A stretch of DNA of 64,000 nt from Candidatus Anstonellales archaeon (GCA_038890745.1 JAWAFD010000002.1:183130-247129); one strand, 5' to 3'. Counted from the first letter of the stretch, positions 1 to 29,332 are shown. The notes: generated by a model not told the origin, from the sequence alone. Numbers and translations: made by a program.

Positions 1-25
1 AAACTTTCCCTTCAAATTGTTAGCG

Positions 26-1711: not shown

Positions 1712-1715
1712 TAGG

Positions 1716-7837: not shown

Positions 7838-7858
7838 TGCGCGAAACCTTTTTAAACT
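7838..7858 (+). promoter_or_regulatory. BRE/TATA-like promoter of the small secreted subunit gene
   Basis: gcgaaa-cc-tttttaaac about 35 bp upstream of ATG 7889. GGTGA Shine-Dalgarno-like motif at 7879-7883. Confidence 0.55.
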
Positions 7859-7888
7859 TTATGGTAGACATTTCAGCAGGTGAAAAGG

Positions 7889-8593
7889 ATGAATGGAAAA
7901 TATCTCTTGATAGGCTTTATGGCTCTCTTAGTCCTAGCAGGAATAGTGGCGGCCAGTACACCAATAAACGCAAGCGTTTCGGCAGGACCGCAGCAAAGAT
8001 ACGCAATACCACATGGTGCAGCAGGTTCTGTTACGACTGAAGGTGGAAACGTAACACAAGTAAACCTTACGGGTACGAACTCCTCTACAGAAAGATGGGC
8101 TGGCTTCTACGGAAACCTTACGGGTTCCAACTTGGTACTCGGTGACAGCTCCGGCAATGCATTCTACGCATGGGCAGTTGGTAATCCAAACGAACTTTGG
8201 AAGGTCTACGCTTCTACCCAGAATGATGTTAACTGGGCAAACCTTGCTGCTGGTCAATGCGAAGCGGGTACGAATGTGTACAATTGGGTGTTCAATGGTG
8301 CCTGGGCAGACAACTATACAAATACATTCACACATTCAGGAGCAGACACATTTGCAGATGCTACAATAACTGCAAACTATACATTGACCTATGAGCATAA
8401 CGGTGCTGAAACTTGGCCGACATACCATCTCCAGGATGGTACAGGAACTGATGATGATGTGTGGGCAGCAAAAGTTTTAACCACTGCAACTGCATTCAAT
8501 GACGCAGCAGGTGTTGTGTACCAGCTCATGGTTCCTGCAAACCCAGCGGATAACACTTACGTGACCTATTACTTCTTCCTAGAAATAAACTAA
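7889..8593 (+). CDS. Small secreted protein; standalone copy of the domain found at the C-terminus of both giant proteins (candidate structural subunit)
   Basis: Signal peptide, GGNVTQVNL...TERWAGFYGN motif, ending YYFFLEIN. ATG chosen from SD spacing; the ORF track starts at GTG 7880. Confidence 0.8.
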   Translation: MNGKYLLIGFMALLVLAGIVAASTPINASVSAGPQQRYAIPHGAAGSVTTEGGNVTQVNLTGTNSSTERWAGFYGNLTGSNLVLGDSSGNAFYAWAVGNPNELWKVYASTQNDVNWANLAAGQCEAGTNVYNWVFNGAWADNYTNTFTHSGADTFADATITANYTLTYEHNGAETWPTYHLQDGTGTDDDVWAAKVLTTATAFNDAAGVVYQLMVPANPADNTYVTYYFFLEIN

Positions 8594-8604
8594 TCCGAGA
8601 GCCA

Positions 8605-8635
8605 TTCTTCCTCTTTTTTCTTTTTTTCCTTCTTG
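8605..8635 (+). terminator. Oligo-T archaeal terminator
   Basis: ttcttcctcttttttctttttttccttctt directly after the stop codon. Confidence 0.55.
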
Positions 8636-8646
8636 ATGCTGCATTT

Positions 8647-8700
8647 GTCGAAAAAATGAACAAAAATATTTGAATTCTGTCCAAAATTTCGACAACTTTT
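8647..8700. repeat. 54-bp direct repeat, copy 1 (imperfect palindrome), abutting the TATA box of the ATPase gene
   Basis: Identical to 9938-9991. Contains TTGTCGAAA...TTTCGACAA inverted arms. Confidence 0.95.
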
Positions 8701-8726
8701 TAAACCTTTCCCCATCCAAATCTCTC

Positions 8727-9938
8727 ATGGAAAACGAACGTATTTTTGAAAAATTATCGCTTGTCTTCACAACAAACCTTAGGATGGCAGAAAGTTTAGA
8801 GTACAAGAGATTTCTCTACCCTGTTTTAAAAAGCAAGATAGTAAAGAATAAGCTTATTCTACTTTATGGAGTAAGGGGGACGGGAAAAACAACCCTTATG
8901 CTTCAGGTTGCATCTGAACTAATGAAAGAGGGAAAAAGAGTTTTTTATTTTCCTCTTGATCATTGGGTATTCTCCCTTTCAACTTTTTATGATTTTGTTG
9001 AGTTTCTATATAAAAAAGGAATAGAATATATTTTTGTCGATGAGGTGCACAAATACCCGAATTGGGTTCAAGAGATTAAAAATATATATGATGGGTTGGA
9101 TGTGAAAATTCTTGCTAGCGGCTCAAACCCCTCTTTAATAATAAAGGGAAAATATGACCTTTCTAGACGGGTAATAGATCTTCAACTCCCCCCGCTTTCT
9201 TACAGGGAGTATATCGAAATGAAAACAGGAAAAAAATACATACCGCTTACGCTTGAAAAAATAGTAAATGAATGGGATTCTGTCCAGCGGACGTATCCAT
9301 ATGTTGATATTAGCGAATACATGCAGTACTCTATGCCATTTTTCCTAAGTACTGAAAGAGAGGAGTATGAAAAGAGTGTGATGAACATAGTTGAGAAAGT
9401 TGTCTATGAAGACCTTCTCTCGTATAATTTCAACACTACAACCATTCTTCATGCAAAATCGATCCTTGGGTACATAGCTTCCAACCCTGCTGGTGAGGTT
9501 AGCATTTCTTCAATAAGTGGAAGAATTGATGGTATGAGCAAGGGTAGTGTTGGTGAAGTTCTGAAAGCATTTGAAAGTATAGGGCTTATTCATTCTGTTC
9601 CTTCTTTGGTGCATGGTAAAGGTTTGCTTAGGCCCAACAAGAAATACTATCTTTCTCCTCCGTTCAGATGGTTTATATGCAAAATGAGTGGAAGGGATTC
9701 AGATATAGGTAGCCTGAGGGAGGATTTTTTTGTTTCTCATCTTTTCAACAGGAAGGTGGAGTATCCTTCTGAGAAGGGTGAGCCTGATTTTATTGTGGAT
9801 AGAAAATATGTTTTTGAGATTGGAGGAAAAACAAAGACAAAAAAGCAAATAATTGGAAAAAAGAATGCGTTTTTGGTAAAGGATGTAATGTTTTCGTATG
9901 ATTCTATTCCGCTGTTTCTGTTTGGCTACCTTTATTAG
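8727..9938 (+). CDS. AAA_14-family ATP-binding protein
   Basis: Walker A GVRGTGKT, Walker B IFVDEVH, C-terminal PDF...FEIGGK and IPLFLFGYLY. ATG 8727 lies about 25 bp after tttttaaa. Confidence 0.85.
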   Translation: MENERIFEKLSLVFTTNLRMAESLEYKRFLYPVLKSKIVKNKLILLYGVRGTGKTTLMLQVASELMKEGKRVFYFPLDHWVFSLSTFYDFVEFLYKKGIEYIFVDEVHKYPNWVQEIKNIYDGLDVKILASGSNPSLIIKGKYDLSRRVIDLQLPPLSYREYIEMKTGKKYIPLTLEKIVNEWDSVQRTYPYVDISEYMQYSMPFFLSTEREEYEKSVMNIVEKVVYEDLLSYNFNTTTILHAKSILGYIASNPAGEVSISSISGRIDGMSKGSVGEVLKAFESIGLIHSVPSLVHGKGLLRPNKKYYLSPPFRWFICKMSGRDSDIGSLREDFFVSHLFNRKVEYPSEKGEPDFIVDRKYVFEIGGKTKTKKQIIGKKNAFLVKDVMFSYDSIPLFLFGYLY

Positions 9939-9991
9939 TCGAAAAAATGAACAAAAATATTTGAATTCTGTCCAAAATTTCGACAACTTTT
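9938..9991. repeat. 54-bp direct repeat, copy 2, overlapping the ATPase stop codon
   Basis: Identical to 8647-8700. Confidence 0.95.
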
Positions 9992-10070
9992 GGTATCCCG
10001 ACCCTGAACGACGAAGAACAAAAGCCAACCTTTTTATACCTATCCTCGCAATTTTCCTTGGGTGTGATGC

Positions 10071-11828
10071 ATGAATGCGAAAGTGCTATTAGTTATATTA
10101 GCGTTGGTTCTGACGCTGGTTAACCCTACGCAATATGTAACCAACTCGAAGGATTGGAGGGATGTCTACCTGACCCTGCATTTTGCAGACCTTTCCGGAG
10201 AACAATCATTTTTTATCCGGAATGAGCTGCACGGAACAAAGGTTCTTCCTTACTTTATAAGCAAAAGCGAACCGGTAGTAATAGTTGAATCAGAAACAGA
10301 ACCATACGTACCAGATTACGAATCCTACCTAAGAACCCTCGGATTTAAAAATGTAACAACATTAAAGACCCAACACCCATACATTCTTCAGGAACAATTT
10401 TTAGAAATGCTAAAAAATAACAGCGTTCCTTTAACAGGTTTTGTTCTTATTGATGATGCTTATGGATATGATGCGGTAAGCGTTGCCCAGTATGCTTTCA
10501 AATACAAAAAATGGGTTTTGTTCACAACCAAAGAAAACAGGAACAGGATTTCATCTCTTTTGGAAGCAAACCCTGGCTATTCCATTCTTTTCTACGGACA
10601 CATGCGAAGAGAAATCGCAGATACCCTTTCAAAATTTAATGTTGAAAAAATAGACAACCAGAGCAGGTTCAAAAATAATATGGAGCTTGCGGAAAGGATG
10701 GTTAAGACAATAAATAGCCAGCAGATTCTTCTTACAAGCGGCGAGTACATAGAGCACGAGATCATGACCGGTGGGGATGGGAACGAAGTAATTCTTTTTG
10801 TTTCTTCAGACCGCTACCCGGAGGATATAATAAATTTCATACGAAAGCACAACATAAAATATGTTATCGTAGTTGGAAATGAGCTCATAAACACAGCAAG
10901 GGAGGTTAGGGAAGCGATGGGAGGAGAGATTACAGTAATAGCAAAGTATGGAATGGGTTTTGTGGGAGTTGCAGAACTGCAGGGCCAGATATATGCGTTG
11001 GACCTTTTCTACCTACCAAAATATCAGTTTAACCTTACTCCCATATCCGCAGTGTACAATCCTACTGCAAAAGAGCTTTACATCCGATTCAAAAACAACG
11101 GAAATGTAGGGAATTATTTCTACACTTCTGCGCCCATTGTTTTTGAGGATAGAACGATCACAACTGTAATAGATAAAGAAAACCAATACCTAGAGCCAGG
11201 TGATGAGAAGGTAATAGTCTACAGCGTGGATCTAACAGATTATATCAACAAAAAAATGTATGCACACCTTTATACTAAATATGGTGAGTCGCCTTATGAT
11301 ATGATGTATTATGTGCTTGAACCGGGAGCGGTGAGACCACCGTATAAACTACCGATTCTTGTTCAAGAATTTGTTGATAATTCAGAGCTTGAGATAACAG
11401 ATGGTTGGTACGATGACTTCTCAAAAGAATACATAATTCAAGTAAGCAACGTAGGTCCTGTTGATGCATACGCTAGAGGAGAGCTTAGAAATATTATAAT
11501 AGATGGTATTCCAACAACAAAAATCCAGAACGGCACGACTTTTATAAGAAAAGGAGAGACCTCTTCCATTCCAATAAAATTAGAGTTAACGGAAGAGGAT
11601 AAAGAGGTCAATAAGGTTGTCCATACCGTAGTCTACTACGGTGAAAAAGAGGATACTTTGATAAAAAGAGCAGAGAAGGATATTGAGCTAAAAGGAAATC
11701 CATGCATCCCGTCCATATTGTTGATAGTACTGCTGTTGATAGCTCTTATCATCGGCTACTATGTATGGAGAAAGAGAAAGGGGCATCATAGGGCAAAGGC
11801 TCACCACGAACACGCAGAAAGTAAGTAG
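10071..11828 (+). CDS. Membrane-anchored surface protein with cell-wall-binding-repeat-2-like alpha/beta domain and Ig-like domains
   Basis: Signal peptide, alpha/beta repeats (IDNQSRFKNNMELAE, ILLTSGE, VIVVGNELI), and a C-terminal TM helix followed by RKRK. Confidence 0.6.
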   Translation: MNAKVLLVILALVLTLVNPTQYVTNSKDWRDVYLTLHFADLSGEQSFFIRNELHGTKVLPYFISKSEPVVIVESETEPYVPDYESYLRTLGFKNVTTLKTQHPYILQEQFLEMLKNNSVPLTGFVLIDDAYGYDAVSVAQYAFKYKKWVLFTTKENRNRISSLLEANPGYSILFYGHMRREIADTLSKFNVEKIDNQSRFKNNMELAERMVKTINSQQILLTSGEYIEHEIMTGGDGNEVILFVSSDRYPEDIINFIRKHNIKYVIVVGNELINTAREVREAMGGEITVIAKYGMGFVGVAELQGQIYALDLFYLPKYQFNLTPISAVYNPTAKELYIRFKNNGNVGNYFYTSAPIVFEDRTITTVIDKENQYLEPGDEKVIVYSVDLTDYINKKMYAHLYTKYGESPYDMMYYVLEPGAVRPPYKLPILVQEFVDNSELEITDGWYDDFSKEYIIQVSNVGPVDAYARGELRNIIIDGIPTTKIQNGTTFIRKGETSSIPIKLELTEEDKEVNKVVHTVVYYGEKEDTLIKRAEKDIELKGNPCIPSILLIVLLLIALIIGYYVWRKRKGHHRAKAHHEHAESK

Positions 11829-11836
11829 TGGTGGAG

Positions 11837-14800
11837 ATGAATAAAAAAACAGCTGTTGCTCTGCTTGTTGCGATTGCGCTAGTGTTTGCTCTAACCAGCG
11901 AATACTCTATTTCCATCGACCGCTCAGAGTACTATGTTGGGGAAGCAGTAAACATTACAGTTACTATGCCCCTGAAGGTTTATGCAGTAAAGCTTTACAT
12001 AACGCTTCCCTCAAATGAGACTGAGGAAACCCCTGCTATAAGATGCCGTACCGGCCTATGCCTGTACCAGTATTTCCCGGATCAACCCGGCCATTATATA
12101 GTTGGTTTGTTTGACAGAAACATTTCGGTTGAGTTTGATGTTCTGCGGAATGAGAATGAAACAGCTCCTCCCCTGATTAACATCACACCCACCCTCCCCA
12201 GACTTTCTTACTATGATGAAAGAACAAACCTTACCTTCTTCTACTATCTCATCCCAACAGAGGAGGGATACGGAGACCTTATAATAGAAAATATCACTCC
12301 CCATCTTCCAGCTCTTGTTCTTAACAATTTCTCTCTAAATTCTTCGCTATTCATCCATGCCTATGAGCTTAATATTTCAGAAAACCAAACCATTCTTAAA
12401 ATAAAAAATTATTCCCAAAACATAAGTGAAAATATTTCTACGGAAGCAACCAACATTACAGAAAATCTTACGGAAAACATAACCGAAAATACTAGTGAAG
12501 AAATCGCGCTGGAAATAACGGAAACAAAAAACACCACAGAAGAAAACTTTTCTGAAATCATCAACGAAAACAACACAGGTTTAAACGAGACAGAAAATAT
12601 CACTGAAAATTTAACTGAAATAGAAAGCGAGACAGAGATCAGGAATCTTTACAATGTTATTTTTGTGAATCTTTCCGGCACGAACTTTTCCTATGCAGAA
12701 TACTACATTCTATTGGAATACGATACTCTTCTTTCCTGCGTCAATTTTACAAATGAAACCTGCGCGCTCTGGGAAAAAGCAAACTCCACACAAGATGGAA
12801 TTTTTGCAATTCTAAACTCAACCTCAGATTTCCTCGTTGCCGGTCAGCTTAACATATCCTATCCATTAGACATATCCGAGAATATTTCCTTGAATGTTTC
12901 GGAAGAGAATATCTCTGAGATAAACATCACTCCTCTTGAGGACGAGGTATACAAACAGCTTGAGATTGTTTTCATAGATATGGGTTTTGATTATTATGAG
13001 GATTTTTGGACCTATGATTCTGTTGAAGAGGAGGTTCAGGAGCTTTTAATACAGAATGCATTCTTTGTTGTTTATGATGAAAAAGGAGAGGGAAGGATAC
13101 CTGAATACATCATCTCTATGGTTGATGAAAAGCATGCGAATGTTGGTATTTTTAAACCCATCCAATCTGTTCCAGTCATCACATTTTATTCACTCTATTT
13201 AGATAAAGAGTTGAAAATGAGCGCCTATGATATAAACGACTCTGCGTTTGTTTTAGATACATATTATCTCTTTTATCCGTACGGCATAGTTTATGCTGAG
13301 AAAAAAGGCGAATATCTCTATTCCTGCGAAGATTTTTCCTATGACTACACATGTAGGACAGGGTTTAAAGAACTCAACTATACGCTACAAAAGGGCAAAG
13401 CGGTATTTAACATAACAAAGGAACAAAAACTATTTTTATGGACAGAAAAACCACTTACTATTCCTGGTGGGGAACAAAACGCCACAGAGCTCCTTCCCTC
13501 TATCAATATAAACATTTCAGATACTCGTGGAAAACAAAAAAATTATACCTACGAAATTTTAGAATACACTGGAAGATATGCCTCAGTAACTTTCTATTTC
13601 TCACCAGAAGAGCGGATTCATTCTATTACGCTTTACAACCTTTCTCTAAGCGGAGAGCCTTTCATATTGTTAGATGAATTTAGTAATAGTATTCTCTTGG
13701 TTGACCTTTCTAACTCTGATTTTGATTATTCTGTTGTGATTGCAAAGGATTATGGAGGAGACCTGTACAAGTGTAAAGAGTTTGATAAAAACTACTCCTG
13801 CTCAGGTGGATGGGAAAAATGGCCTTATTTTGCATCCGGTGGATACATAGTATTTAAACTCCTTCCTGAAGACCCGCTCTTTATTCAAACAATAAATCTA
13901 TCCACAGTAACTACTCTTAACATAATTGATCCGTTCGGCAATCCTGTAAACGGCTCCTATGAGATTTTGGACAATTCAACCGGTCTTGATGTCCAAATAA
14001 ATTTCAACTCCGGCCAGGTTTTGCAACTAACTATTTATGATATCCCAGATGATGGATATTCTCACACAATAGTTGTTGGGGATACTTTTGTAAATGATTC
14101 AGAAAACAACATGACCAATACTTTTGTAATAGACCTCTCAAACATTTCCTATAATTATTCTAATGTTGTTGCGAGAAATTCTGGAGGAGATTTATATAAA
14201 TGTTCCACATTTTCTTCAAACTTCTCCTGCCTTTCTTCCTGGGAGCTCTATCCATACACAAATAATGGAGTAAATCGTTCGTTTAATTTAACAGAAGGAG
14301 ATCCGATGTTTGGATATGAAAAAGAAGGAAACATTTCTATTTTTGATATTACTTCATGTACTGCGATTACAACTTCGGGCTATCACACTCTTGATAATAA
14401 CTTAGTAGGGAATACAAGTAATTCGATAGGTGGCTATTATTATTGTATTGCTATAAGGGTTAGTAATGTTGAGCTTAATTGTCAGAACTACGAGATAAGA
14501 GGAAACTCTGCAGGGAGTACTGTCGGCATAATAATATACGACCCTCCCCTTGCTATCAATCCTTTAACAAATGTTACAGTAAGGAACTGCAATGTCTTAA
14601 ACTACTCAAGAAACCTTATGATAGATTCTGCTTTGACAACCGATCATTCTCAAATTACCATCCGAGATTCTAGGTTTAACCTATCTTCTGGCAATTCAAT
14701 AAGAGTTGAGGATTGCGATGATTCTAATTTTACGAATTTGGTTGTTGATAGAACAAGCGATGGGGGTATACTATTCCTGACCGATTCTACTAATAATAGA

Positions 14801-17800
14801 GTAGTAAATTTCACTGGCTACAACTCAGCAAATTTTTTCATCATGGACTACAGCGGTTCAAACAACTTTACAAATATAACACTAAGAAACGGTGGATGGG
14901 CAGGGATATGGATAAGAGGAGTGGATAATTCAATAGTAGATGGTTTTGATATTCAAAACATAACAGAAAGCGGCGGAGTGGTATATGGTGGTATTTATGT
15001 TTCAAGTGGTGGCGATAATAATATAATAAGAAACGGAAAAATATACGATTTGGTTACCTATGGAATTCAAGTTAACGGAAGTTATAATAATACTATAACA
15101 AATGTTACAATATATAACTCTACTTCAGAAAGTGGAATATTCATTTATGAGGATACCGCAGATAACAACAAAATATACAATTCAACAATTTATAGGAATG
15201 CAGATTATGGAATATATGTAAATGGCGCAGATGACCTCCTTATATATAATACCAATATAGAAAACCATACCTCAGGATACGAGGTTTATCTTTATGCTCC
15301 AAGCAGTCTTGTTTCTGTAAGCAATATTTTAATTCAAAACAGCCGGTTTGTAAACAACAAATCCATAAATACGATGGGAATTAATGCAATATATGGCTCC
15401 AACATTACAGTTGATAACTCAACCTTTACAGGAATTTATATTGGTGCGTATTTCAACCAATCAAATACAATTACTATTAAAAATTCAACATTTTTGAGAA
15501 ACGGAAAAGCAGGGATATTTTTTGATTCCACAACTAGCTCTTCTGTTTTGGATAACGATATAAACGATACCTATTGGACTTCTGATGACCCAGGAGGAAT
15601 TTATCTAGGATTCTGCGATTGGAATTCAGTAAATTTTTACAAATTTGAAGGAGGAATAATTCTCTGCTACTCAAACTATACCCAAATTTCTTATAATTAT
15701 TTAAAAGGAAATGGAACATGCACAGACAATTGTATCGCTAACCACAATGGCTGCGAAGCAGGAATTTTTACTTACAACTCAAAACTAAACAATATTACTT
15801 ATAACATTTTCAGAAACTCAGGAGACAATTACGATTCTTTATATTTCTACTCTTACGATACAAACTATTGGTATAACGATCAAAACGGCACAGACCCATT
15901 AACAGGAAACAACAATGTAAATGATGGAATAAAATTAGACAATTCAAGAGGATTTAACATTTCTCACTCTAATTTCTCAAATAATCGTGAGTGGGGAATT
16001 TTTTTGACAAACTCTAACGATACTTACATCTACAACAATACTGCAAGTTATAATACCAATGTGGGTATTCGTTTAGCTAGCTCAGCAAACAACACAGTAA
16101 TCTACAACACAGCATTTAAAAATCAACAAGGATTTAGAGTTGAACAATTAGAAGCTATTAATAATATTTTCAAAGATAATACAGCATATAGCAACTCTTA
16201 CTACGGTTTCTACCTTTACTTTAGCTCCAACAACACCCTTTCCAATAACACAGCATATAGCAACTCTTACTACGGTTTCTACCTTTACTTCAGCTCCAAC
16301 AACAACACCCTTTCCAATAACACAGCATATAGCAACTCTTACTACGGTTTCTGCCTTTACTTCAGCTCCAACAACAACATCCTCTCCAACAACACTGCAT
16401 ATAATAACAATATTTATGGAATTTATCTTTATCAGAATGCAGACAACAACACAATTGTCAATAACACAATATATAACAATTCAATTTATCAACTACTTAT
16501 TAATGAAACCTATCCTTCTTATGATAACAAAATATACAACAACATCTTCAACGCTTCAGCGGGCCAAGGAGTAGTCTACGATTCAGGAACAAACTATTGG
16601 AACACCTCCTATGACTGCACAGGAACAAACATAATAGGTGGAGACTGCATAGGAGGAAACTTCTACTCTAACTACACAGGAGCTGATGATGGTTCAGGCG
16701 CAACCTATCCTCATAATATTGCAGGGGATGGAATTGGAGACAATCCAGATGACTACTATATCTATGGAGGAAGCAACATTGACTACCTTCCATTAACAAA
16801 TCTTAGAACTGCATGCTTCTATGCTGATACCTCAAACACAGTCTATACTTTAACAAGAAACCTCTATGGAAACAAATCAGACAGAATCTGCATTACAATA
16901 AATGCCTCAAACATTACTATAGATTGTAATGGCTACAATATTACAGGAACATACCCATACACAGGCTACACAATAGGAATAGGAAACTATGACTCAAGAA
17001 ACAATGTTACAATCAAGAACTGTTACATAACCAACTACACATTTGGGATATACGCAAACTTATCAAACCAATACAACATTACAAACAACTCATTAGTAGC
17101 AAACGGAAAAGCAGGAATTTTCTTTGATTCAACCGAAAACTCCACAATCTGGGATAATGATATAAACGATACCTATTGGACTTCTGATGACCCAGGAGGA
17201 GATTACTTCCAATTCTGCAACTGGAGTGCAGGGAATTTCTCAAGATTTGAAGGAGGAATAATTCTCTGCTCCTCAAACTATACCCAAATTTCTTATAATT
17301 ATTTAAAAGGAAATGGAACATGCGGTGGTGGCGGACCTGGCTGTGGGTCTAACCACAATGGCTGCGAAGCAGGAATTTTTACTTACAACTCAAAACTCAA
17401 CAATGTCACCCACAACACATTCAGAAACTCAGGAGACAATTACGATTCTTTATATTTCTACTCTTACGATACAAACTATTGGTATAACGATCAAAATGGC
17501 ACAGACCCATTAACAGGAAACAAAAATGTAAATGATGGAATAAAATTAGACCATTCAAGAGGATTTAACATTTCTCACTCTAATTTCTCAAATAACTATG
17601 AGTGGGGAATATTCTTTACATGGTCAAATGACTCCTACATATACAACAATACTGCAAGATATTGTGTAGGCTCAGGTGGAGTTGGTATTCGTTTAGCTCG
17701 CTCAGCAAACAACACAGTAATCTACAACACAGCATTTAAAAATCAAGAGGGGTTTAGAGTTGACTACTCAGAAGCTATTAATAATATTCTTAAAGATAAT

Positions 17801-20800: not shown

Positions 20801-23701
20801 GTGCATAATATAACTACAGACAATATAGTTAGAGATACGGTTCTTGATTCTTCTGACAAATATATATATTATTATGTCAGGAATGTGACTGGGGACGGTT
20901 TGTATGATACTACAGAGCCAATACCTACAAATGTTGGTTTTATTGGAGTTGTTAACTCATCAGATTTCTTAGTTGAAAATGTTTCCCTGCACAATAACTC
21001 CCATGGGTTGTTATCTGTTCTTGCTAACAATGTAACTGCAAATAATGCTACATTTTACTATGAATACATAGGAGCATATCTGCTTTATTCAAGTAACCAT
21101 AATATAACGAACTTAAATTCTTCTTCTAATGGTGCAGGTGGATTTAGATTATACTATTCGGATAAAAATAATATAACGGATTCAGAGATAAAAAATAATG
21201 GCTTGTTTGGCGTTGATTTAAGATACACAAACAATACAATAGTCGAAAACAATCAGATTCACAATAATTCGTACTACGGTTTTAGAGGTTATGCTTCTTC
21301 CTATAGTAATAAAATTATTAACAATACGATAGGGTCGTTCCATAATATCAGCATTTATCTAAACAATGCGCCCTATACACTTATAGAGAACAATACAATT
21401 TATGAAAGTAACATTGATGGAATACATCTATTCATGAACTCTAATTGCAACATAATCAACAATTCCATTACTTCAAACACACAATATGGTGTTAGCATCC
21501 ATTACCAGTCTTCTAATAATACAATACTCTACAATACTATAACAAATAATGGCTACTCAGGACTCTACATCTTGATATCTGTAAACAACACTATTGCAGG
21601 TAATACTATTTCTGACAACACCCAAAATGGAATATATTTATTTGGGTATGCCAATGAAAACAATATAACAAACAATACTATCTCGGACAACTTTTTCAAT
21701 GGAATAAGGATAGAAGCTGGGTGTAGCAACAACCTCATCTACAACAACATCCTCAACAATACCTATAATACATATGACGATGGCACTAACTATTGGAACT
21801 ATTCCTACTGCCCAGGCGGGCCTAACATAATCGGTGGACAATGCATAGGTGGAAACTACTATTCTGATTATGATGGGATAGATGATGGAAGCGGCTCCCC
21901 ACCCATTCATAATATTGCAGGAGATGGAATAGGAGATAATCCGGACCAGTATGCGATAGGTGGAGGAAGCAACATTGATTACATGCCTTTGACAAATAAC
22001 CAACTAGGAATGAATTGCATGTATATAAATTCAAACACAAGCCTTCTTGCGAACTTGGTTGGAAACAAATCAGATAGGGCGTGCATTACGTTTAATGCTT
22101 CAAATATCTACTTAAACTGCTCCGGTTATAATATCACAGGAAATGTCTATGATCCTGAAAACAAAACATACGCAATAATGACAAACGGATTTGAAAACAT
22201 AAGCATAATAAACTGCCCAAACCTAACCAACTATTCTTTTGGAATATATGTTAATGGTACAAAAAATGCAACGATAAATAATGTAACCTCTTACAAAAAT
22301 ACCGATAGCGGGATAGGAATAGTAGACAACAGCAGCCAGATAGAAATATCAAATACAACCCTTCCTTTCAACACGGAAAATGGAATATTCATAAACTCCT
22401 CTTCCCAAGTGAACGTTTACTCAACAGAGATATACAACAATCCCTACTCAACCCTATTCAATGTAGGGATATACTCTCTAAACTCTTCCAGAATTTTAAT
22501 CTCAAATGCTTCAATATACAACCATAGCACCTATGGAATTTTGGCTTACGACACGTCACATATCAGCATTTCTGACTCCTACTCGATATTCAACCAAATT
22601 GCAGGAATGTATCTTAATGCAGGGAATAACCTTACGATGCAAAACAGCAACTTCTCAAACAATACAATATACGGTATAAGACTTAATGCTTTCGAAAACA
22701 TTACAGGAAACAATATCACAATACACGGAACCAGAGGGGATGAGGCATTTTTAGCAGACTATTCCTACAATGCAACCATCTCAAACTCTTCAATAAGCTT
22801 TAACTATCTTAACGCTATACGATTATTCACTTCTGCAAATTTCACATTCAATAATATCACAGCAAACAATAATACAAGAGGGATCTACATAAACGACTAT
22901 ACAAACGGAACAAGAATACTTAACTCTAACATAAGCTTCAACAGTGATAAAGGAGTGTTTTTCACACAAACAACAGATAATAATAGAATGGAAAACAGCT
23001 ATATTTGCTTCAATACCCAAAAGGATATAGATAATCAGGACGGAACAGATAACAACGGCTCATTGAACACATGCGACACATACTATCAGTGGAAGGATGA
23101 TGAACTGCCAGATGGATGCGCCATGACATGCACTTCTATATGGCATTATTTCTATGGAAATATTACTGGTTTGATTTTGCTTGGAACAAACTGGACAGAG
23201 CCAAAATTCATGTCCAACTGGACTCCTGCAATAGTGCACATGTATGTATTCCCAGAAGGAAATACAATAAGCTGGTTGGAACTTCAGGCATTAGGAAGAA
23301 AGGCAGATAATACAACAGCAAGCAATGATTTTGAAGAGGCGGACATAGCTTTGGGAATAGACCCTGCATTAGTGGATAGCATAAACAAAACATTCAGCAT
23401 AGATGGAACACTTCCAATAGAGAACACGACATATAGGGTATGGGGTAGGGATATTGCAAACATTTCCATCGCAAACTCAACGGATAACAAGAATTTCAAG
23501 ACAGGTATTTTGTGGGACACGAGCGATGGGGGAACAGAATTTACTTCTGCAGAGCATCAGGATTTGGTGTTTATGACAAATATTACATGGGACGGAGAAG
23601 GAAAATGGGGAACATATGATTATGAAATAAGAGTGCCTTCCCAGTTTGCCACCTATAATGGAGGAGCAGGTAGGGTTATAATTTATCTAGAGGTTCAATA
23701 A
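11837..23701 (+). CDS. Giant (~3950 aa) secreted multi-module beta-helix adhesin/surface glycoprotein
   Basis: Signal peptide, acidic NITEN linker, repeated LY(S/K)C...C...(WE) domains, successive beta-helix modules closed by GTNYWN...CIGGNFYS...GDGIGD...DYLPL caps, and the shared C-terminal domain. Confidence 0.85.
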   Translation: MNKKTAVALLVAIALVFALTSEYSISIDRSEYYVGEAVNITVTMPLKVYAVKLYITLPSNETEETPAIRCRTGLCLYQYFPDQPGHYIVGLFDRNISVEFDVLRNENETAPPLINITPTLPRLSYYDERTNLTFFYYLIPTEEGYGDLIIENITPHLPALVLNNFSLNSSLFIHAYELNISENQTILKIKNYSQNISENISTEATNITENLTENITENTSEEIALEITETKNTTEENFSEIINENNTGLNETENITENLTEIESETEIRNLYNVIFVNLSGTNFSYAEYYILLEYDTLLSCVNFTNETCALWEKANSTQDGIFAILNSTSDFLVAGQLNISYPLDISENISLNVSEENISEINITPLEDEVYKQLEIVFIDMGFDYYEDFWTYDSVEEEVQELLIQNAFFVVYDEKGEGRIPEYIISMVDEKHANVGIFKPIQSVPVITFYSLYLDKELKMSAYDINDSAFVLDTYYLFYPYGIVYAEKKGEYLYSCEDFSYDYTCRTGFKELNYTLQKGKAVFNITKEQKLFLWTEKPLTIPGGEQNATELLPSININISDTRGKQKNYTYEILEYTGRYASVTFYFSPEERIHSITLYNLSLSGEPFILLDEFSNSILLVDLSNSDFDYSVVIAKDYGGDLYKCKEFDKNYSCSGGWEKWPYFASGGYIVFKLLPEDPLFIQTINLSTVTTLNIIDPFGNPVNGSYEILDNSTGLDVQINFNSGQVLQLTIYDIPDDGYSHTIVVGDTFVNDSENNMTNTFVIDLSNISYNYSNVVARNSGGDLYKCSTFSSNFSCLSSWELYPYTNNGVNRSFNLTEGDPMFGYEKEGNISIFDITSCTAITTSGYHTLDNNLVGNTSNSIGGYYYCIAIRVSNVELNCQNYEIRGNSAGSTVGIIIYDPPLAINPLTNVTVRNCNVLNYSRNLMIDSALTTDHSQITIRDSRFNLSSGNSIRVEDCDDSNFTNLVVDRTSDGGILFLTDSTNNRVVNFTGYNSANFFIMDYSGSNNFTNITLRNGGWAGIWIRGVDNSIVDGFDIQNITESGGVVYGGIYVSSGGDNNIIRNGKIYDLVTYGIQVNGSYNNTITNVTIYNSTSESGIFIYEDTADNNKIYNSTIYRNADYGIYVNGADDLLIYNTNIENHTSGYEVYLYAPSSLVSVSNILIQNSRFVNNKSINTMGINAIYGSNITVDNSTFTGIYIGAYFNQSNTITIKNSTFLRNGKAGIFFDSTTSSSVLDNDINDTYWTSDDPGGIYLGFCDWNSVNFYKFEGGIILCYSNYTQISYNYLKGNGTCTDNCIANHNGCEAGIFTYNSKLNNITYNIFRNSGDNYDSLYFYSYDTNYWYNDQNGTDPLTGNNNVNDGIKLDNSRGFNISHSNFSNNREWGIFLTNSNDTYIYNNTASYNTNVGIRLASSANNTVIYNTAFKNQQGFRVEQLEAINNIFKDNTAYSNSYYGFYLYFSSNNTLSNNTAYSNSYYGFYLYFSSNNNTLSNNTAYSNSYYGFCLYFSSNNNILSNNTAYNNNIYGIYLYQNADNNTIVNNTIYNNSIYQLLINETYPSYDNKIYNNIFNASAGQGVVYDSGTNYWNTSYDCTGTNIIGGDCIGGNFYSNYTGADDGSGATYPHNIAGDGIGDNPDDYYIYGGSNIDYLPLTNLRTACFYADTSNTVYTLTRNLYGNKSDRICITINASNITIDCNGYNITGTYPYTGYTIGIGNYDSRNNVTIKNCYITNYTFGIYANLSNQYNITNNSLVANGKAGIFFDSTENSTIWDNDINDTYWTSDDPGGDYFQFCNWSAGNFSRFEGGIILCSSNYTQISYNYLKGNGTCGGGGPGCGSNHNGCEAGIFTYNSKLNNVTHNTFRNSGDNYDSLYFYSYDTNYWYNDQNGTDPLTGNKNVNDGIKLDHSRGFNISHSNFSNNYEWGIFFTWSNDSYIYNNTARYCVGSGGVGIRLARSANNTVIYNTAFKNQEGFRVDYSEAINNILKDNTAYNNSWYGFHLSSSSNNTLSNNTAYSNSYYGFHLYFSSNNTLSNNTAYNNNIYGIYLYQNADNNTIVNNTIYNNSIYQLLINETYPSYDNKIYNNIFNASAGQGVVYDSGTNYWNISYDCTGTNIIGGDCIGGNFYSNYTGVDDGSGATYPHNIYGDGIGDNPDDYYIYGGSNVDYLPLTNNQTLCFYADTSNTVYTLTRNLYGNKSDGNCITIVDWTTNITIDCNGYNITGWGVGKGIFSAYSSHNTIKNCNIRNYTYAMDLRVGQNISVFNNNITNNTNGIALIVDIKHSRLYNNYFYDNTGSSFYMVYGCDNVSFYNNTIEKSGGWAISLRDTTTNSRIENNTIFNGDNVGIGLYPSDTLNNTIKGNSIYNQGSYGIYLSSGTNNNTISDNIVYNTTNYQIAISSSSDNLIYNNIFNASAGQGVVYDSGTNYWNISYDCTGTNIIGGDCIGGNFYSNYTGVDDGSGATYPHNIYGDGIGDNPPNYSIYGGSNWDYLPLTNNITYARCFYANISNTVYTLSGNLYGNKSDRICITINASNITIDCNGYNITGNHSLTENTIGIGSYVGWENVTIQGCHVSNYTYGVYAYSFNNTLIDELNSIRNHFGIYLNQTTNSNITNSKIEVYNETAWSRGIYLVNSSGIRISSSHINRTGLTSAPWAIGIMPCATNDTIIESSNFTDRLTRSIFVSICREVDGTEFQAPTYNLTIKDNHFWNTETVIALWVNYNTSIINNTIEYYRGYGIVSGYLGLPGEYWDLLIENNTIRNATNCLDDPSYSGHMTGIYIDTNSGGWTVRGNRIEYMPTLGIDLDGVGGYSYDMLFENNVFNHTGENDYGAGCNPTPNMGGVYFGGIENSTVQNNIVENFGSSIGINFWWRENQNVLVQNNTVFNGNATGIGGSGTQNNITVRNNTVSFARAGIGFSSTSNSAFYNNTVHDNTKEGIAISNGYNNTLQDNLAYANMYGISLNNVVNHTLLNNNMTNNRYNFYIEGSSVPHFVHNITTDNIVRDTVLDSSDKYIYYYVRNVTGDGLYDTTEPIPTNVGFIGVVNSSDFLVENVSLHNNSHGLLSVLANNVTANNATFYYEYIGAYLLYSSNHNITNLNSSSNGAGGFRLYYSDKNNITDSEIKNNGLFGVDLRYTNNTIVENNQIHNNSYYGFRGYASSYSNKIINNTIGSFHNISIYLNNAPYTLIENNTIYESNIDGIHLFMNSNCNIINNSITSNTQYGVSIHYQSSNNTILYNTITNNGYSGLYILISVNNTIAGNTISDNTQNGIYLFGYANENNITNNTISDNFFNGIRIEAGCSNNLIYNNILNNTYNTYDDGTNYWNYSYCPGGPNIIGGQCIGGNYYSDYDGIDDGSGSPPIHNIAGDGIGDNPDQYAIGGGSNIDYMPLTNNQLGMNCMYINSNTSLLANLVGNKSDRACITFNASNIYLNCSGYNITGNVYDPENKTYAIMTNGFENISIINCPNLTNYSFGIYVNGTKNATINNVTSYKNTDSGIGIVDNSSQIEISNTTLPFNTENGIFINSSSQVNVYSTEIYNNPYSTLFNVGIYSLNSSRILISNASIYNHSTYGILAYDTSHISISDSYSIFNQIAGMYLNAGNNLTMQNSNFSNNTIYGIRLNAFENITGNNITIHGTRGDEAFLADYSYNATISNSSISFNYLNAIRLFTSANFTFNNITANNNTRGIYINDYTNGTRILNSNISFNSDKGVFFTQTTDNNRMENSYICFNTQKDIDNQDGTDNNGSLNTCDTYYQWKDDELPDGCAMTCTSIWHYFYGNITGLILLGTNWTEPKFMSNWTPAIVHMYVFPEGNTISWLELQALGRKADNTTASNDFEEADIALGIDPALVDSINKTFSIDGTLPIENTTYRVWGRDIANISIANSTDNKNFKTGILWDTSDGGTEFTSAEHQDLVFMTNITWDGEGKWGTYDYEIRVPSQFATYNGGAGRVIIYLEVQ
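15500..18500 (+). repeat. Tandem ~1.5-1.6 kb intragenic module duplication
   Basis: 15500-~16950 versus 17102-~18500, with long identical tracts such as 16382-16604 = 17927-18149. Confidence 0.9.
16177..16400 (+). repeat. Three tandem 66-69 bp beta-helix rung repeats (NTAYSNSYYGFYLYFSSNNTLS)
   Basis: Directly visible. The sister module has only two such rungs (~17800-17940). Confidence 0.85.
19046..19257 (+). repeat. Third copy of the module-cap coding sequence
   Basis: Identical to ~18080-18292 and near-identical to ~16535-16747. Confidence 0.85.
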
Positions 23702-23739
23702 ACGAAACCTTTATTATTCTTATCTCGGAATTCTTAACG

Positions 23740-26700
23740 ATGTCCATAAGGGTTTTGCGTTTTGCGTTTGCACTATTTCTACTTTTATCTATCTTCAACG
23801 CTGTTGATCTGAGTACCTGCGGTTCTCTCTCTTCAAATACCTACTACGAAGTAACTCAAGACCTTAATACTGGAGATTCCCAGACACCATGCCTTGTTGC
23901 ATACGGCGTGTCTAATGTTGTGGTAAATTTGAAAGGGTATTCTGTTAGAGGAATAAAAATACAAAACTCTGCAAATAACATTACAATAGAAAACGGTTCA
24001 TTAGCTCTTCCCGGTAATTATTTCGGATCTTTTGCTTACCTTAAAATATATATCCGCGATTCTTCAAATATTACTATAAAAAACGTTTCCCACTATGCCT
24101 ATTGTACATCCCCGGGATGTAGCGGCCCGGAGATAGCCAATTCAATGAATGTTTATTTCTACGAAGTTTCCTCCACCCTTCCATCTGATGCAAGAGGAGG
24201 CAACCCAAGCGTTTTTTTTGGTATTCAAAACACAACAAACGCTACATTTGAACGGCTTAAGTATTCTTTCCCGGACTCTCTCGGCCACTGCACAGCCTTG
24301 GCTTGGACAGCGATTCTTATAGATTCTTCGGGTTCTGGTGCTAAAAAATCAAACAATATTGTGATAAAACAATCAGAAATAACAGGTTCTTGCAATGGAA
24401 TACTTTCATATACAGAAAATTTGACGCTGTATAACAATATTATAGATACATACGACGTACAGATATGGCCGAAATATTGCAATAACAACATCACGAGCAA
24501 CATGGGAAAAAACTCGCTCTACCCGATTGTTTACATGGAGCACAACTCCTCCCAAACCTATTCTCCTGGGTCAGTTTCTCAGCTTATTTTCTGCAATATC
24601 TCGAATTTTCAGGTCACAGGCCCAACAGCAATATACGGAGGAATTCTTCTCGTTAACTCTTCGAACAATACATTTAACGGATTCTCAACAAACACGACAT
24701 ACACGGGAATAGTTTTTGACAGGAGCAAAGACAACAAGTTCTATAATGGTGGAATGCATAATGGAGTTTATGGGGTTTTGTTCTATGCAACAGATGGTGT
24801 TGCGTCCACAGGCAACTCATTTGAAAATACCTCGTCCTCTAATATCACAGACCGGGTGTTTGGAGGATGCGGAGTAAGAGGAGAGTGCGTGTGCAATTTT
24901 TCAGTAAAAAACGCCTCTTTGAATGGATTCCCTGCTTGGTTTAATACAACAACAAACGGAATTACTGTTTCGAATGTAAACCTAAATGAGCTTACTTTCT
25001 GCGATGTTGAAAACTCTACAGTGAGCAATGTCAATATAACAAACGGGACTGGCTTTTGGAGCTTTTCAAGCGCAAACATCTTAGTTGAAAACTCAAACAT
25101 TTCCAATGCTCATTATCATAATCTTTTCTCATACCTTGATGATAACATTACAATAAGAAACAGCGATTTAAGCTATTTCAGGGTTGATCCCTCAGCACAA
25201 TGGGCATACAGCCACTCTACTATGTTTTCGCGTTCTCAAAATATCACCGTCGAAAACATAACCTCATATGAAACGAACGGTTTCGCAGTTTATATCGGAA
25301 CTAATGCAAATGTTTTCAACTCAAAAATCATAAACACAAAATCTGGCGGATGCTACTACTGCAGTTTTTCCCTTGGTTTTTCAGGGACGAACGCATGGGC
25401 AGAAAACAATACCGTAATTTCAGATGAAACCAATCTCTATGGTATTGTCCTTGGGATAGCGTATAATTATTTGGGCGGAAACATAACAGCAAGGAATAAT
25501 ACGATAATGGGAAAATATGTCGGCATCGCATTGAGCAATCATCCAGGATATCCCCAGCCAAACAATAATATCGTGAACATTACGAGGAATCTAATCCAAA
25601 ACTCTTCCTATGGGATTATGATAAACCCGAGCACAACAAACATTACAGAAATAAGCTTCAACAGAATAGAAAATAAGATCGCATCCCGTGGAAGTACTGC
25701 ATGCATGTACTCTGTCGGCTCTTCATACAGAGGAATGAATGTATCCATATTCAACAATACAATGTACAATGCAACATATGGCTACTATGCCTCGTATGGG
25801 ATAAGAGACCATATATTCAATAATACGATATGCAATGTAAATACAGTTTTCTACCTCTACCACTCAACAGAAATATACATAGGAAACAATTCTATATGCG
25901 ATGATATATACACCCCCATAGATATAGTGAGCGATAATTCGCAGGAGTGCGCGCATGGAGTTAATTTCACAGTAAACGAAACAAACCCAGTTTATTTCAG
26001 TAACATAGATGATGTTGTTTTTGAAAACAACGACAGCATTGCGCAGATATTCTTGTGTAATGTGAGTAGAGCGCGGGTGCAAAACATCACGATGAGAAGG
26101 GAAAATGCCCAGTATGGCGTATGGGCCGTCCTCACACGATATAGCAACATTACAGATTTTAGATGTTATAACATGAACTCAAATGTGTATTGTGTTTATT
26201 TCAAGCATTTGGATTTTGAAAATAGAGTAAAGGATTCTATCATCGTGAACAATACATATGGCATAAGGATTTCTGAAAATTCAAACACCACGCATGTCTA
26301 TAACAACACCTTTGAAAACAACACCTATTCAGTTTATTTGGAAGGATACCTAAACAATATTTCAACCAACTCTTTCAAAAACCCAAAATCTGAGGGTGTA
26401 GAAGTTTATCTTTATGCCCTAAATTCAAATAATAATACAATAAGTAATAACACATTTACACAGTTAACTAATGGGTATGCTTTTAAGATCGTATATAAGT
26501 CAGCCTCCGGGAATGTTTTTGAGTGGAACACTGTTAATGGCCCGGGTGAATACTATAGCCCGATTTGGATATCCGGCCAAAGTAATACATTCAGATTTAA
26601 TACACTAAACGGCACAAAAACCAGCTCTGGTTTCCTAAACAGAGCAAACGGCTCTGTTTTTTACAACAACACAATAGAAAACTTCAGTGTCGGAATATAT

Positions 26701-28431
26701 AATGACTACCGGCCAGGATGGTATGCTGGGAACAATTCTCTCATATACCACAATTTCTTTAGAAATATTACAAACTATTATGTTTGGTGGGATTCGCACC
26801 TTACAGTATTTTTAAACACTTCAGTTTCAGGGGTTGCGCAGGGGAATTATTATGACGACATTCTAGAGTATCAAATATACGATTCTGATGATAATAGCTA
26901 CTGCGACTATGGAGACCAATACCCATACGGAAACCCGCCAACTGCAAAACTTCCTGCCACCCCGCCTTGGAAGGACTATGGACCCATAATCCTAGGAGGA
27001 ATATACGATCATCCTAATGGAGAGAATGAATCCGCCTATTCAGCATTCTACCTCAACAAATACATCTATGATTTGGAAAGGCACTACACTACTTCCTTTA
27101 TTCGCTATAACCACTCAACCCAAGGATTAAGACTTATGGTAAAAGGCCATTTCCATTTTGGGGACGTAAACATAAGCAATGCGAGCATATACACAGGTGC
27201 TTTGGAAACTGGCGGAAACTACACAGTTATAAACGCCACCTCTGCGGCGGGAATAAACGAAACCATCTCATTTTTTGTTCCAAACTTTTTGGACCAGGGG
27301 GTTTTTGTCTGCCCGAATGCAGAATCCCCGCAGGAGCTTACTTACAACTGCGAAGGATATACCTCTTTTGACATTACAGAATGCGAGGCAGGAACAACAA
27401 AAAATGGAATAACAGTGAATTTAATAACTTTCCTAGGTCAGGAATACTACAACATTACGCATGCTCAAAAAAGGGGAGGGGCAGGGGAGGAGATAGGTGC
27501 GAACCTTACGATATGGGACACGAGCGATAACGAGACAATTTGCCCAGGAGAAAACATTACATTTTTTGCAAACTATTCAAACGCAACTTCTGGTGAGCCA
27601 ATCCTGAATGCAGACTGCAACATAAGTTTTGAGGATGGGGTTTCTGCGATGATGTGGTACAACGACTCAAGTTTGCTTTATGAATACAACAGAAGCTTTG
27701 ATAACCCAGGAATATACTACTACAATGTCACATGCAATGCGACCGATTATCCAACGAGGTTTAGAGAGGACCATGCACAGGTTTTTATATGCGGGGTGTA
27801 TCTCTATGGAGTAAATGTTACGGTTATTAACATAAGCAAGTATAATTATACTTATGAGGTAGGGAGATATCCTCTTAGGCCAGGAAATATTACGAACCTT
27901 AATATAGACATGAATGTTTCTACAGAGAAATGGGCAGGCTTCTATGGCAATATCAGCAATGGAACATACTTAGTTTTAGGGGATGCGGTAGGAAATTTTA
28001 TGTATAAATGGCCATGGGGAGGGGAGGAAGGAAAGGGAAGGGTTGTGTGCACAAGCACAAACGGAAGTTTGTACTTCATCAACCTTACCGGTGCTCTTGG
28101 AAGCGAGATAGATACAGCATGGAATTTCCTTCCGAACGCGGCTGATTCTGGAACGAACACATTCAACCAGCAGTGCGACATTACTTTTGGCGCGTATACA
28201 ATACAAAATGCTGCATGCAGGCCTACAGGGTATTGGAATTTCTACACCCGTGCCCTCAAAATCTATCCGTGGCTTGGTCATAAGGACCAGATGGTATTCT
28301 GCACAAACATCACCTCTGCAACAAGCTTTGTGGATACTCCAGTTGATTTTGAGCTTATCGTTCCTACAGAATACGGAATGGGCAGCGGCCCTCCTTATGA
28401 AATATACTATTTCTATGTATCCATAGAGTAA
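23740..28431 (+). CDS. Large secreted beta-helix surface protein ending in the shared subunit-like domain
   Basis: Signal peptide, beta-helix rungs, an Ig-like domain and C-terminal PGNITNLNI...TEKWAGFYGN...YYFYVSIE. Confidence 0.85.
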   Translation: MSIRVLRFAFALFLLLSIFNAVDLSTCGSLSSNTYYEVTQDLNTGDSQTPCLVAYGVSNVVVNLKGYSVRGIKIQNSANNITIENGSLALPGNYFGSFAYLKIYIRDSSNITIKNVSHYAYCTSPGCSGPEIANSMNVYFYEVSSTLPSDARGGNPSVFFGIQNTTNATFERLKYSFPDSLGHCTALAWTAILIDSSGSGAKKSNNIVIKQSEITGSCNGILSYTENLTLYNNIIDTYDVQIWPKYCNNNITSNMGKNSLYPIVYMEHNSSQTYSPGSVSQLIFCNISNFQVTGPTAIYGGILLVNSSNNTFNGFSTNTTYTGIVFDRSKDNKFYNGGMHNGVYGVLFYATDGVASTGNSFENTSSSNITDRVFGGCGVRGECVCNFSVKNASLNGFPAWFNTTTNGITVSNVNLNELTFCDVENSTVSNVNITNGTGFWSFSSANILVENSNISNAHYHNLFSYLDDNITIRNSDLSYFRVDPSAQWAYSHSTMFSRSQNITVENITSYETNGFAVYIGTNANVFNSKIINTKSGGCYYCSFSLGFSGTNAWAENNTVISDETNLYGIVLGIAYNYLGGNITARNNTIMGKYVGIALSNHPGYPQPNNNIVNITRNLIQNSSYGIMINPSTTNITEISFNRIENKIASRGSTACMYSVGSSYRGMNVSIFNNTMYNATYGYYASYGIRDHIFNNTICNVNTVFYLYHSTEIYIGNNSICDDIYTPIDIVSDNSQECAHGVNFTVNETNPVYFSNIDDVVFENNDSIAQIFLCNVSRARVQNITMRRENAQYGVWAVLTRYSNITDFRCYNMNSNVYCVYFKHLDFENRVKDSIIVNNTYGIRISENSNTTHVYNNTFENNTYSVYLEGYLNNISTNSFKNPKSEGVEVYLYALNSNNNTISNNTFTQLTNGYAFKIVYKSASGNVFEWNTVNGPGEYYSPIWISGQSNTFRFNTLNGTKTSSGFLNRANGSVFYNNTIENFSVGIYNDYRPGWYAGNNSLIYHNFFRNITNYYVWWDSHLTVFLNTSVSGVAQGNYYDDILEYQIYDSDDNSYCDYGDQYPYGNPPTAKLPATPPWKDYGPIILGGIYDHPNGENESAYSAFYLNKYIYDLERHYTTSFIRYNHSTQGLRLMVKGHFHFGDVNISNASIYTGALETGGNYTVINATSAAGINETISFFVPNFLDQGVFVCPNAESPQELTYNCEGYTSFDITECEAGTTKNGITVNLITFLGQEYYNITHAQKRGGAGEEIGANLTIWDTSDNETICPGENITFFANYSNATSGEPILNADCNISFEDGVSAMMWYNDSSLLYEYNRSFDNPGIYYYNVTCNATDYPTRFREDHAQVFICGVYLYGVNVTVINISKYNYTYEVGRYPLRPGNITNLNIDMNVSTEKWAGFYGNISNGTYLVLGDAVGNFMYKWPWGGEEGKGRVVCTSTNGSLYFINLTGALGSEIDTAWNFLPNAADSGTNTFNQQCDITFGAYTIQNAACRPTGYWNFYTRALKIYPWLGHKDQMVFCTNITSATSFVDTPVDFELIVPTEYGMGSGPPYEIYYFYVSIE

Positions 28432-28471: not shown

Positions 28472-29332
28472 ATGAAATGGGGTAAGAAGATTGCGCTCGC
28501 TGCTGGAATTACTCTTCCTGCAATTGGTTTAGGAGCAAAAGAAGTAAAAGCAGATCCGTTTCCAGGTCAACCCCTCCAAGTTTCACACTTGGATCAACAG
28601 GCGATGGATTATCTTTATGGATTACGCCTTCCAATGATTATAGATAGTTTAAACGAAAGAATAACCATTTACAAGAAAATGTTACAGTCCGCCGAAAATA
28701 GATACCCTGACCTTACTTTTATTTCTCGCATCCTCTCCCAAAGTGGAGTTGCCATGGACCGCATAGGAGACCAATCCACTTTAATAACAGGAGTAACTTC
28801 AACACCAACAACAGCAATTGTTTCAGTAATGGATATTCTAGATATAAATAGTTCTGGTGTTGTTCAAGGCGTGAAGTTAAGACCAGAATATCGCAAGAAA
28901 GCAGTTTGGCTTTTCGGAGAGACAGAGGTATGCGAATTAGAGAACGCCCTCTCCAAACTTTTCACAAATACCATGGACGAGTACAGAGTTGATTATATAA
29001 GTCCGGGAGGGACGAGTAAGGGCCAGTCATCTTCCACTGTTCCAAAATGGTTAGATGCTCTTGATGGAAAGTATGTTTACATGCTTGTTAAAATAGTTAT
29101 GTTGGTTAATGGAATTAAACCGGAAGATGTTGCTGCTTACAGTAAAGACCTTGATACTGCGTATAAAGAGATTCTATGGTTAATGTTTCAGATCAATTGC
29201 GCGACCAAGGCAAAGAGTTTGGCAGAATGGCTATCAGAACACGGCGCTGACCCAAATATTCCATACGAAATAAAAATGCAAAAGTATGATGAATTAAAAA
29301 TATTACTTAAACAGCTGGGGATATACATCTAG
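28472..29332 (+). CDS. Hypothetical secreted protein
   Basis: 286-aa ORF with a basic/hydrophobic N-terminus ending VKA. Upstream tttaaa and downstream oligo-T. Confidence 0.65.
   Translation: MKWGKKIALAAGITLPAIGLGAKEVKADPFPGQPLQVSHLDQQAMDYLYGLRLPMIIDSLNERITIYKKMLQSAENRYPDLTFISRILSQSGVAMDRIGDQSTLITGVTSTPTTAIVSVMDILDINSSGVVQGVKLRPEYRKKAVWLFGETEVCELENALSKLFTNTMDEYRVDYISPGGTSKGQSSSTVPKWLDALDGKYVYMLVKIVMLVNGIKPEDVAAYSKDLDTAYKEILWLMFQINCATKAKSLAEWLSEHGADPNIPYEIKMQKYDELKILLKQLGIYI

Follow-up and report, generated by a model that had tools for sequence, protein, structure and literature searches.

The stretch of DNA analysed here, 64,000 nucleotides (nt) of a Candidatus Anstonellales archaeon (GCA_038890745.1 JAWAFD010000002.1:183130-247129; hereafter the window), belongs to a host genome of 990 kb that is 94% complete. 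Between positions 7889 and 28431 it carries, all on the plus strand, four genes which encode the parts of a candidate archaeal pilus. The first gene (7889..8593, ATG at 7889) codes for a secreted protein of 234 amino acids (aa), consisting of a Sec-type signal peptide (approximately residues 1-23), an N-terminal arm (approximately 25-62) and a beta-rich core which reaches to the C-terminus; it is the predicted shaft pilin. Arm residues 46-60 (8024..8068), bearing the GGNVT motif with invariant G53, are the predicted donor strand. The second gene (10071..11828) encodes a membrane partner of 585 aa, a candidate membrane-anchored chaperone or anchor, with a signal peptide, a CWB2-like repeat region, a hairpin containing the invariant K292, Ig/CARDB-like domains, a C-terminal transmembrane (TM) segment at approximately 545-567 and a basic tail. 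Its stop codon overlaps by 1 nt with the start of the third gene (11828..23701), whose product is a giant secreted beta-helix protein of 3957 aa with 242 N-x-S/T sequons, ending in a domain reduced to the subunit core (from W3772; 23126..23701) and predicted to act as a tip adhesin. The fourth gene (23740..28431) encodes a secreted beta-helix protein of 1563 aa, a predicted in-shaft component or adaptor, which ends in a complete subunit domain including the arm (27808..28431; positions 24-224 of the domain hidden Markov model (HMM), E 6e-42).

Kinship of the 234-aa protein with the C-terminus of the 1563-aa protein had been noticed in a preliminary description of the locus, and it is confirmed: phmmer aligns the two with E 3e-15, their local alignment score (z 21.8) was reached by none of 1000 shuffles, the open reading frames are in place, and the matching segments quoted in that description are present and aligned in order. 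The same domain had been assigned to the end of the giant. Pairwise comparison with the 234-aa protein does not bear this out (z 1.0; 168 of 1000 shuffles reach the score), while profiles do: the giant tail matches the domain HMM with E 3.9e-7, and with 4.1e-12 in a second profile search, and profile-profile comparison of standalone proteins with giant-type tails gives 99.4% and E 8.5e-22. All three domains are homologous. They are also alike, as originally described, in having E as the last or third-last residue and no TM segment beyond residue 30 (highest hydropathy over 19 aa 0.94, 1.16 and 1.67, against 2.85 in the 585-aa protein, which is encoded right before the giant). By reading of the sequence, the small gene has signals of its own, with BRE-like (7842-7846; BRE, B recognition element), TATA-like (7849-7856) and Shine-Dalgarno-like (7879-7883) elements within 7842..7883 (+) and T-runs past the stop codon.

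The shared domain has no match in Pfam or NCBIfam and no sequence match in PDB. Searches of PDB with the subunit, by phmmer and by profile, returned unrelated proteins at E>0.5, the solved subunits of threads, AbpA-TasA filaments, cannulae and Tafi not being matched. The earlier statement that the system is not a type IV pilus holds as well: reading of the window protein reveals no class III signal, a loose version of the motif occurs in just 8 of 60 standalone homologues, and the subunit family matches no pilin family. An Ala following the hydrophobic stretch, at the likely cleavage site, is kept in 93% of 143 homologues. We found no description of the domain family in the literature; the DPANN protein-family supplements (PMC8204110, accessible in part) could list it unannotated.

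Next, we compared the layouts in which the domain occurs. Domain matches begin at four distinct profile positions (approximately 1-9, 17-28, 39-45 and 59-66), and four forms can be told apart. In the S form, to which the 234-aa protein belongs, the signal peptide is followed by an arm of about 38 residues and the core. The C1 form (12 cases, 1563-aa type) consists of a passenger, the full arm and the core, and the C2 form (18 cases and 13 later ones, giant type) of a passenger followed directly by the core. In the N form, of which 22 were scored, the signal peptide is followed at once by the second half of the arm. This fourth, arm-bearing and usually membrane-anchored layout is an addition to the preliminary description. 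The arm motif precedes the first core strand in 42 of 52 scored S forms, 18 of 22 N forms and 12 of 12 C1 forms, and in none of the 18 C2 forms or the 13 further C2 tails. In locus L081 an arm would find no room, residue 1214 being the last of a CARDB domain and residue 1219 the first of the core. The two fusions, previously treated as one kind, are therefore not equivalent: the tail of the 1563-aa protein is a whole mature subunit, arm included, whereas that of the giant begins at the first core strand. They probably have different roles.

The N forms differ from the others in several respects. They lack the first arm segment, and the distance from signal helix to invariant Gly has a median of 9 residues, compared with 31 in S forms (18 of 23 N and 43 of 60 S scored). 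Behind the first core strand, a Trp hairpin is found in 3 of 22 N forms, and in 1 of 7 from Methanosarcinales, compared with 51 of 52 S forms, all 30 C forms and 11 of 13 further C2 tails. A C-terminal TM segment is present in 17 of 22 N forms and in none of 60 S and 29 C forms, where the domain almost always runs to the protein C-terminus (58/60 and 28/29). All five TM-less N forms belong to one subtype, which travels together with homologues of two genes at the edge of the window (those for 564-aa and 624-aa proteins, see below). Of the host's own N forms, the TM-anchored one lies on contig C5, and one without a TM segment is encoded 2 kb before the window starts. Two Methanosarcinales N forms (L081:12043-13362 and L082:8840-10282) have a PGF-pre-PGF domain ahead of the TM segment. 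We also considered whether an internal copy of the arm could occupy the groove of the N form itself. Such a copy was found in 10 of 22 N forms at p<=0.05 (0 of 52 S forms), yet in just 1 of 7 in the independent Methanosarcinales set, and therefore this was not adopted as a general feature.

An AlphaFold2 model of the subunit (143 sequences, mean predicted local distance difference test, pLDDT, 85.8) has a beta-rich core from residue 70, and residues 28-69 remain without strand pairing in spite of a pLDDT of 80-87. Covariation was examined in 339 sequences (19,600 pairs, 10 subsamples). The pairs V48-F73 and T50-A71 are among the top 20 in 10 of 10 subsamples; V55-S66 and R37/Y38-S66 covary too, and S47-Y228 does so more weakly (rank 20-110). 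A short hairpin within the arm, suggested by pair 50-58, did not persist across subsamples and was dropped. Since the arm covaries with core residues 66, 71, 73 and 228, its partners are the first and the last core strands, both of which are kept in C2 tails. That C2 tails retain these partner strands and lack the arm favours strand exchange in trans. Contact with the first and last core strands marks the donor-strand site in chaperone-usher and WxL pilins. In the WxL pilin, the donor strand lies beside the last strand, according to the part of the report accessible to us (bioRxiv 10.64898/2026.10.17.759780). Prediction of a complex of four subunit copies gave a median of 0.33 against a mark of 0.42 and was counted neither way.

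Subunit and membrane partner are also linked genomically. In 40 of 44 loci, no more than 2 kb separates the partner gene from the standalone gene. Among 201 genomes of Micrarchaeota, the phylum of the host, 46 contain both domain and partner and 151 neither; the domain occurs without the partner in 3 and the partner without the domain in 1. These numbers come from two profile searches with different E cut-offs and include kin which are not independent. Subunit identity goes along with partner identity across 45 loci (Spearman coefficient 0.35, against a null maximum of 0.24), which is attributable to shared descent. The N-terminal 290 or so residues of the partner match the CWB2 triad of Clostridioides difficile SlpA (E 2.3e-6; PDB 7acx, 7acy and 9f8e). 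Pfam CWB2 is recognised, with E<=0.1, in 14 of the 34 proteins of the family, the best match having E 9e-9; the 585-aa protein taken alone reaches E 0.045, which does not pass the Pfam cut-off. The hairpin with K292 is conserved throughout the family. In bacteria, CWB2 is a glycopolymer-binding module.

The gene set is real and widespread, occurring in many very small archaea of symbiotic type and in some methane-cycling ones, and it is built from unnamed families. A profile search with the shared domain yielded 1,639 clusters at 50% identity. The domain is present in 49 of 201 genomes of Micrarchaeota, in 60 of 201 genomes of the phylum to which a Woesearchaeota record belongs, and in 20 of 190 genomes of Methanosarcinales, the order of a Methanosarcinaceae record. 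An ainarchaeum record and Aenigmarchaeota are also among the named loci. For the proteins of the window, homologues with a name belong to Micrarchaeota/Anstonellales, and the closest record (77%) bears the name Micrarchaeales, so that we regard the host as a DPANN archaeon; two large families of Micrarchaeota had no domain among the genomes searched (0/56 and 0/36). The linked set of standalone protein, fusions and 585-aa family, predicted by the preliminary description, thus recurs across three archaeal lineages. In Methanosarcinales, 10 of the 20 positive genomes were fetched, and S form, partner and C2 form occurred in all 10, the N form in 8, one of these being a fragment. From the Woesearchaeota-record phylum, ten of the 60 positive genomes were fetched, and arrays of up to seven standalone paralogues occurred among them; in loci L091, L092 and L097, five to seven tandem paralogues adjoin an arm-less adhesin tail. 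The host genome itself has seven domain members and a second cluster (L001:8136-16436, G000:C5), with a standalone protein of 223 aa, a partner of 557 aa, a TM-anchored N form of 676 aa and an arm-less giant tail that ends at the contig end. Identity between the two clusters is 33% for the subunit and 27% for the partner.

This gene set has a counterpart in bacteria. For the Elr pilus, found in Enterococcus faecalis and other Bacilli, a logic of tip, shaft, base and membrane chaperone has been demonstrated or modelled, and the WxL system to which it belongs is confined to Bacillota, as far as the accessible part of the report tells (bioRxiv 10.64898/2026.10.17.759780). Judged from that part, both systems possess a standalone pilin of similar size, an adhesin with a C-terminal pilin domain devoid of a donor strand, a donor-strand base with a membrane tether, and a membrane partner in which two beta-sandwich domains are combined with a C-terminal helix, and neither has an usher. 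All four elements of the bacterial set (tip fusion without an arm, standalone pilin, membrane base bearing an arm, C-terminally anchored partner) are thus matched in the archaeal family. In sequence the two do not meet. The WxL domain (PF13731) has no match in 40 homologues or in the host genome at E<=1; DUF916 and DUF3324 have none in the host genome at E<=1 and, like the PapD family, are not among the matches listed for 34 partner proteins (25 of 26 families). Since these tests failed, we do not file the archaeal set as a WxL/Elr pilus. There are further differences: none of the 22 N forms carries LPxTG, 17 having a C-terminal TM segment instead; the archaeal base keeps a whole, diverged domain; the partner has an additional CWB2-like region; and, to judge from the accessible description, the arm is longer (about 38 residues versus 15) and the C1 fusions hold it internally. 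From C. difficile SlpA, the partner differs by its membrane anchor and Ig-like domains.

AbpA bundling pili belong to the archaeal donor-strand filaments. Other known filaments resemble the archaeal set in principle. Pam pili of candidate phyla radiation (CPR) bacteria (PMC13278184), compared by their description and in the part accessible, also come from small-genome symbionts, and a set of donor-strand pilins, an acceptor-only tip, chaperones with TM anchors and a terminator has been proposed for them on the basis of one operon. They differ in having two-domain pilins with an internal linker strand and paired chaperones, and no giant fused adhesin is noted there. The Sulfolobus thread Saci_0406/0405 (PMC9715654) and Tafi (PMC11821415, PMC12337348) share with our family the logic of strand donation, not sequence; in the accessible parts of these reports neither a conserved membrane chaperone-like partner nor giant beta-helix fusions are noted, and the host lineages are different. 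The twin-arginine signal described for Tafi was found in none of 60 S forms. For Pyrodictium cannulae, a further archaeal donor-strand filament (listed as PMC12518558), the PDB search gave no sequence match.

Taken together, we consider it probable that the cluster encodes a donor-strand pilus with tip, shaft, base and a likely chaperone, because the complementary layouts, the covariation, the unpaired arm in the AlphaFold2 model, the linkage, the C-terminal position of the domain and the Elr and Pam parallels all point in this direction. S subunits would polymerise head to tail, the N-terminal arm of each being inserted in the core of its neighbour. The giant, having a core and no arm, would be an acceptor-only cap and would place an adhesin at the tip. 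With its arm kept, the 1563-aa protein may be built into the shaft, its beta-helix projecting sideways, or serve as an adaptor. The N form would end the assembly and tie the fibre to the membrane. For the 585-aa partner, a role of membrane-anchored chaperone holding unfinished subunits and that of a plain anchor appear about equally likely by analogy. The comparison with fimbrial shaft and tip adhesins, drawn in the preliminary description, fits this picture and becomes more specific through the arm-less tips, the arm-bearing membrane base and the membrane partner; the lattice mentioned there as well fits less well than a linear fibre. A bolder version, which we hold tentatively and rate somewhat below an even chance, is that of an independently evolved chaperone-assisted archaeal pilus with an undescribed pilin fold, a chaperone built on a CWB2-like triad and giant adhesins both at the tip (arm-less) and along the shaft (internal arm), that is, a modular organelle for partner attachment in DPANN symbionts and some Methanosarcinales.

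Several observations weigh against the pilus interpretation. The covarying pairs 48-73, 50-71 and 55-66 (i+j = 121) are compatible with an intramolecular hairpin too, and the depth of the covariation set is low (effective number of sequences 292). Counts of the layout classes derive from profiles built on overlapping sets, from loci not de-duplicated by genome and from kin which are not independent. Some N forms are TM-less (5/22 overall, 3/7 in Methanosarcinales), and a TM-anchored N gene is missing from the cluster in the window. Among the ten fetched stretches of the Woesearchaeota-record phylum, which include partner-free arrays, five contain the partner gene and the other five do not, and genome G002 (88% complete) has partner and N form and no standalone match. 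The largest region of the partner is CWB2-like, and the chaperone role rests on the ElrE analogy, since WxL, DUF916 and DUF3324 gave no match.

The strongest competitor is a short complex of fixed size, in which a base, one or a few adaptor subunits and an adhesin would be joined by strand exchange on the partner and the domain would be a docking tag, without any long fibre. Layouts, linkage and covariation are equally compatible with such a stalk, the giants are long enough to reach outward unaided, and we see no sign of high expression: the subunit gene ranks 135th of 888 by codon usage, a measure carrying almost no signal here (tiny range, impure reference set), and promoter motifs of BRE/TATA type are not clearly enriched upstream of homologous genes (14/60 versus 63/441 other genes). 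We nevertheless regard it as unlikely. The S form has both arm and core, so that extension is in principle unlimited, its gene has promoter-like and terminator-like signals apart from the partner-adhesin operon, and several genomes contain tandem paralogues.

The large number of paralogues in some genomes agrees also with a two-dimensional surface lattice or coat, held by the partner and decorated by co-assembled fusions; the likeness of the partner to the CWB2 region of an S-layer protein and the complete domain kept in C1 fusions would suit it. It leaves unexplained why one class of fusions is always arm-less while the membrane-anchored class keeps the arm, and a family present in just about a quarter of the genomes searched is hardly what a coat would predict; we give this reading even less weight than the stalk. 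Equally improbable in our view is that the domain is a monomeric module, either glycan-binding or aiding folding or export at the end of large beta-helix proteins, and that the arm differences reflect erosion of domain boundaries. The possible intramolecular hairpin, the confident AlphaFold2 monomer and the divergence of C2 tails into a subfamily of their own speak for it, but it would leave unexplained the almost strict tie between domain and partner, the sharply defined positions at which the four forms start and the recurrence of the four-gene set in distant lineages.

Several genes accompany the cluster. Between subunit and partner lies an AAA_14 ATPase gene (8670-9938; 8643..9991 with flanks, +), bounded by 58-bp direct repeats (8643-8700 and 9934-9991, 98% identical). 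It is probably an insertion which splits the two genes and stands outside the system; in 37 of 44 loci the two are at most 400 nt apart. Further AAA_14/DUF4143 genes occur at 3636-4940 and adjoining the second cluster (L001:12619-13899). A 564-aa CARDB protein and a 624-aa TM-anchored Ig protein (17..3590, +) have homologues after the subunit and partner genes in loci L045, L049 and L026 (564-aa only, as the contig ends there). Together with the TM-less N form of 522 aa just outside the window (G000:C2:179303-180871; L002:14304-15872), they make up a module of three genes, located after the core genes in L045 and in L049; it is a probable accessory module and possibly an alternative base. The 522-aa and 564-aa proteins share, by eye, a C-terminal domain. 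Directly 5' of the subunit gene, a 941-aa secreted beta-helix protein (4969-7794) has a Pro/Ser-rich tail, no shared domain or TM segment, and a close paralogue on contig C3 (E 4e-161). After the cluster (28472-35409), proteins of 286, 1398 and 599 aa have no paralogues and no homologues in the fetched loci, and the 599-aa one alone shows a weak CARDB match. About 10 kb upstream of the window (L002:1822-8175, minus strand), a Type II/IV secretion ATPase, a multi-TM protein and three small pilin-like genes form an ordinary type IV pilus locus. Adjacent to it (L002:8237-9811, minus strand) is a gene for a protein of 524 aa in which seven canonical PPR repeats are recognised (Pfam PPR E 5e-81); proteins of this kind are uncommon in prokaryotes.

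The principle of the donor-strand pilus is already known; what is likely to be new is that unnamed archaeal families would build it. If this is true, a pilin family without sequence link to known ones, and possibly an archaeal pilus chaperone, would be added to donor-strand filaments. Both the small subunit and the ectodomain of the partner are amenable to expression and testing without culture of the organism. The four-gene set is a testable candidate for the means by which uncultured DPANN archaea locate their hosts and stay attached to them; it occurs in about one in four of the searched genomes of two DPANN phyla and in 20 of 190 genomes of Methanosarcinales. Swappable giant adhesins could then set the choice of partner.

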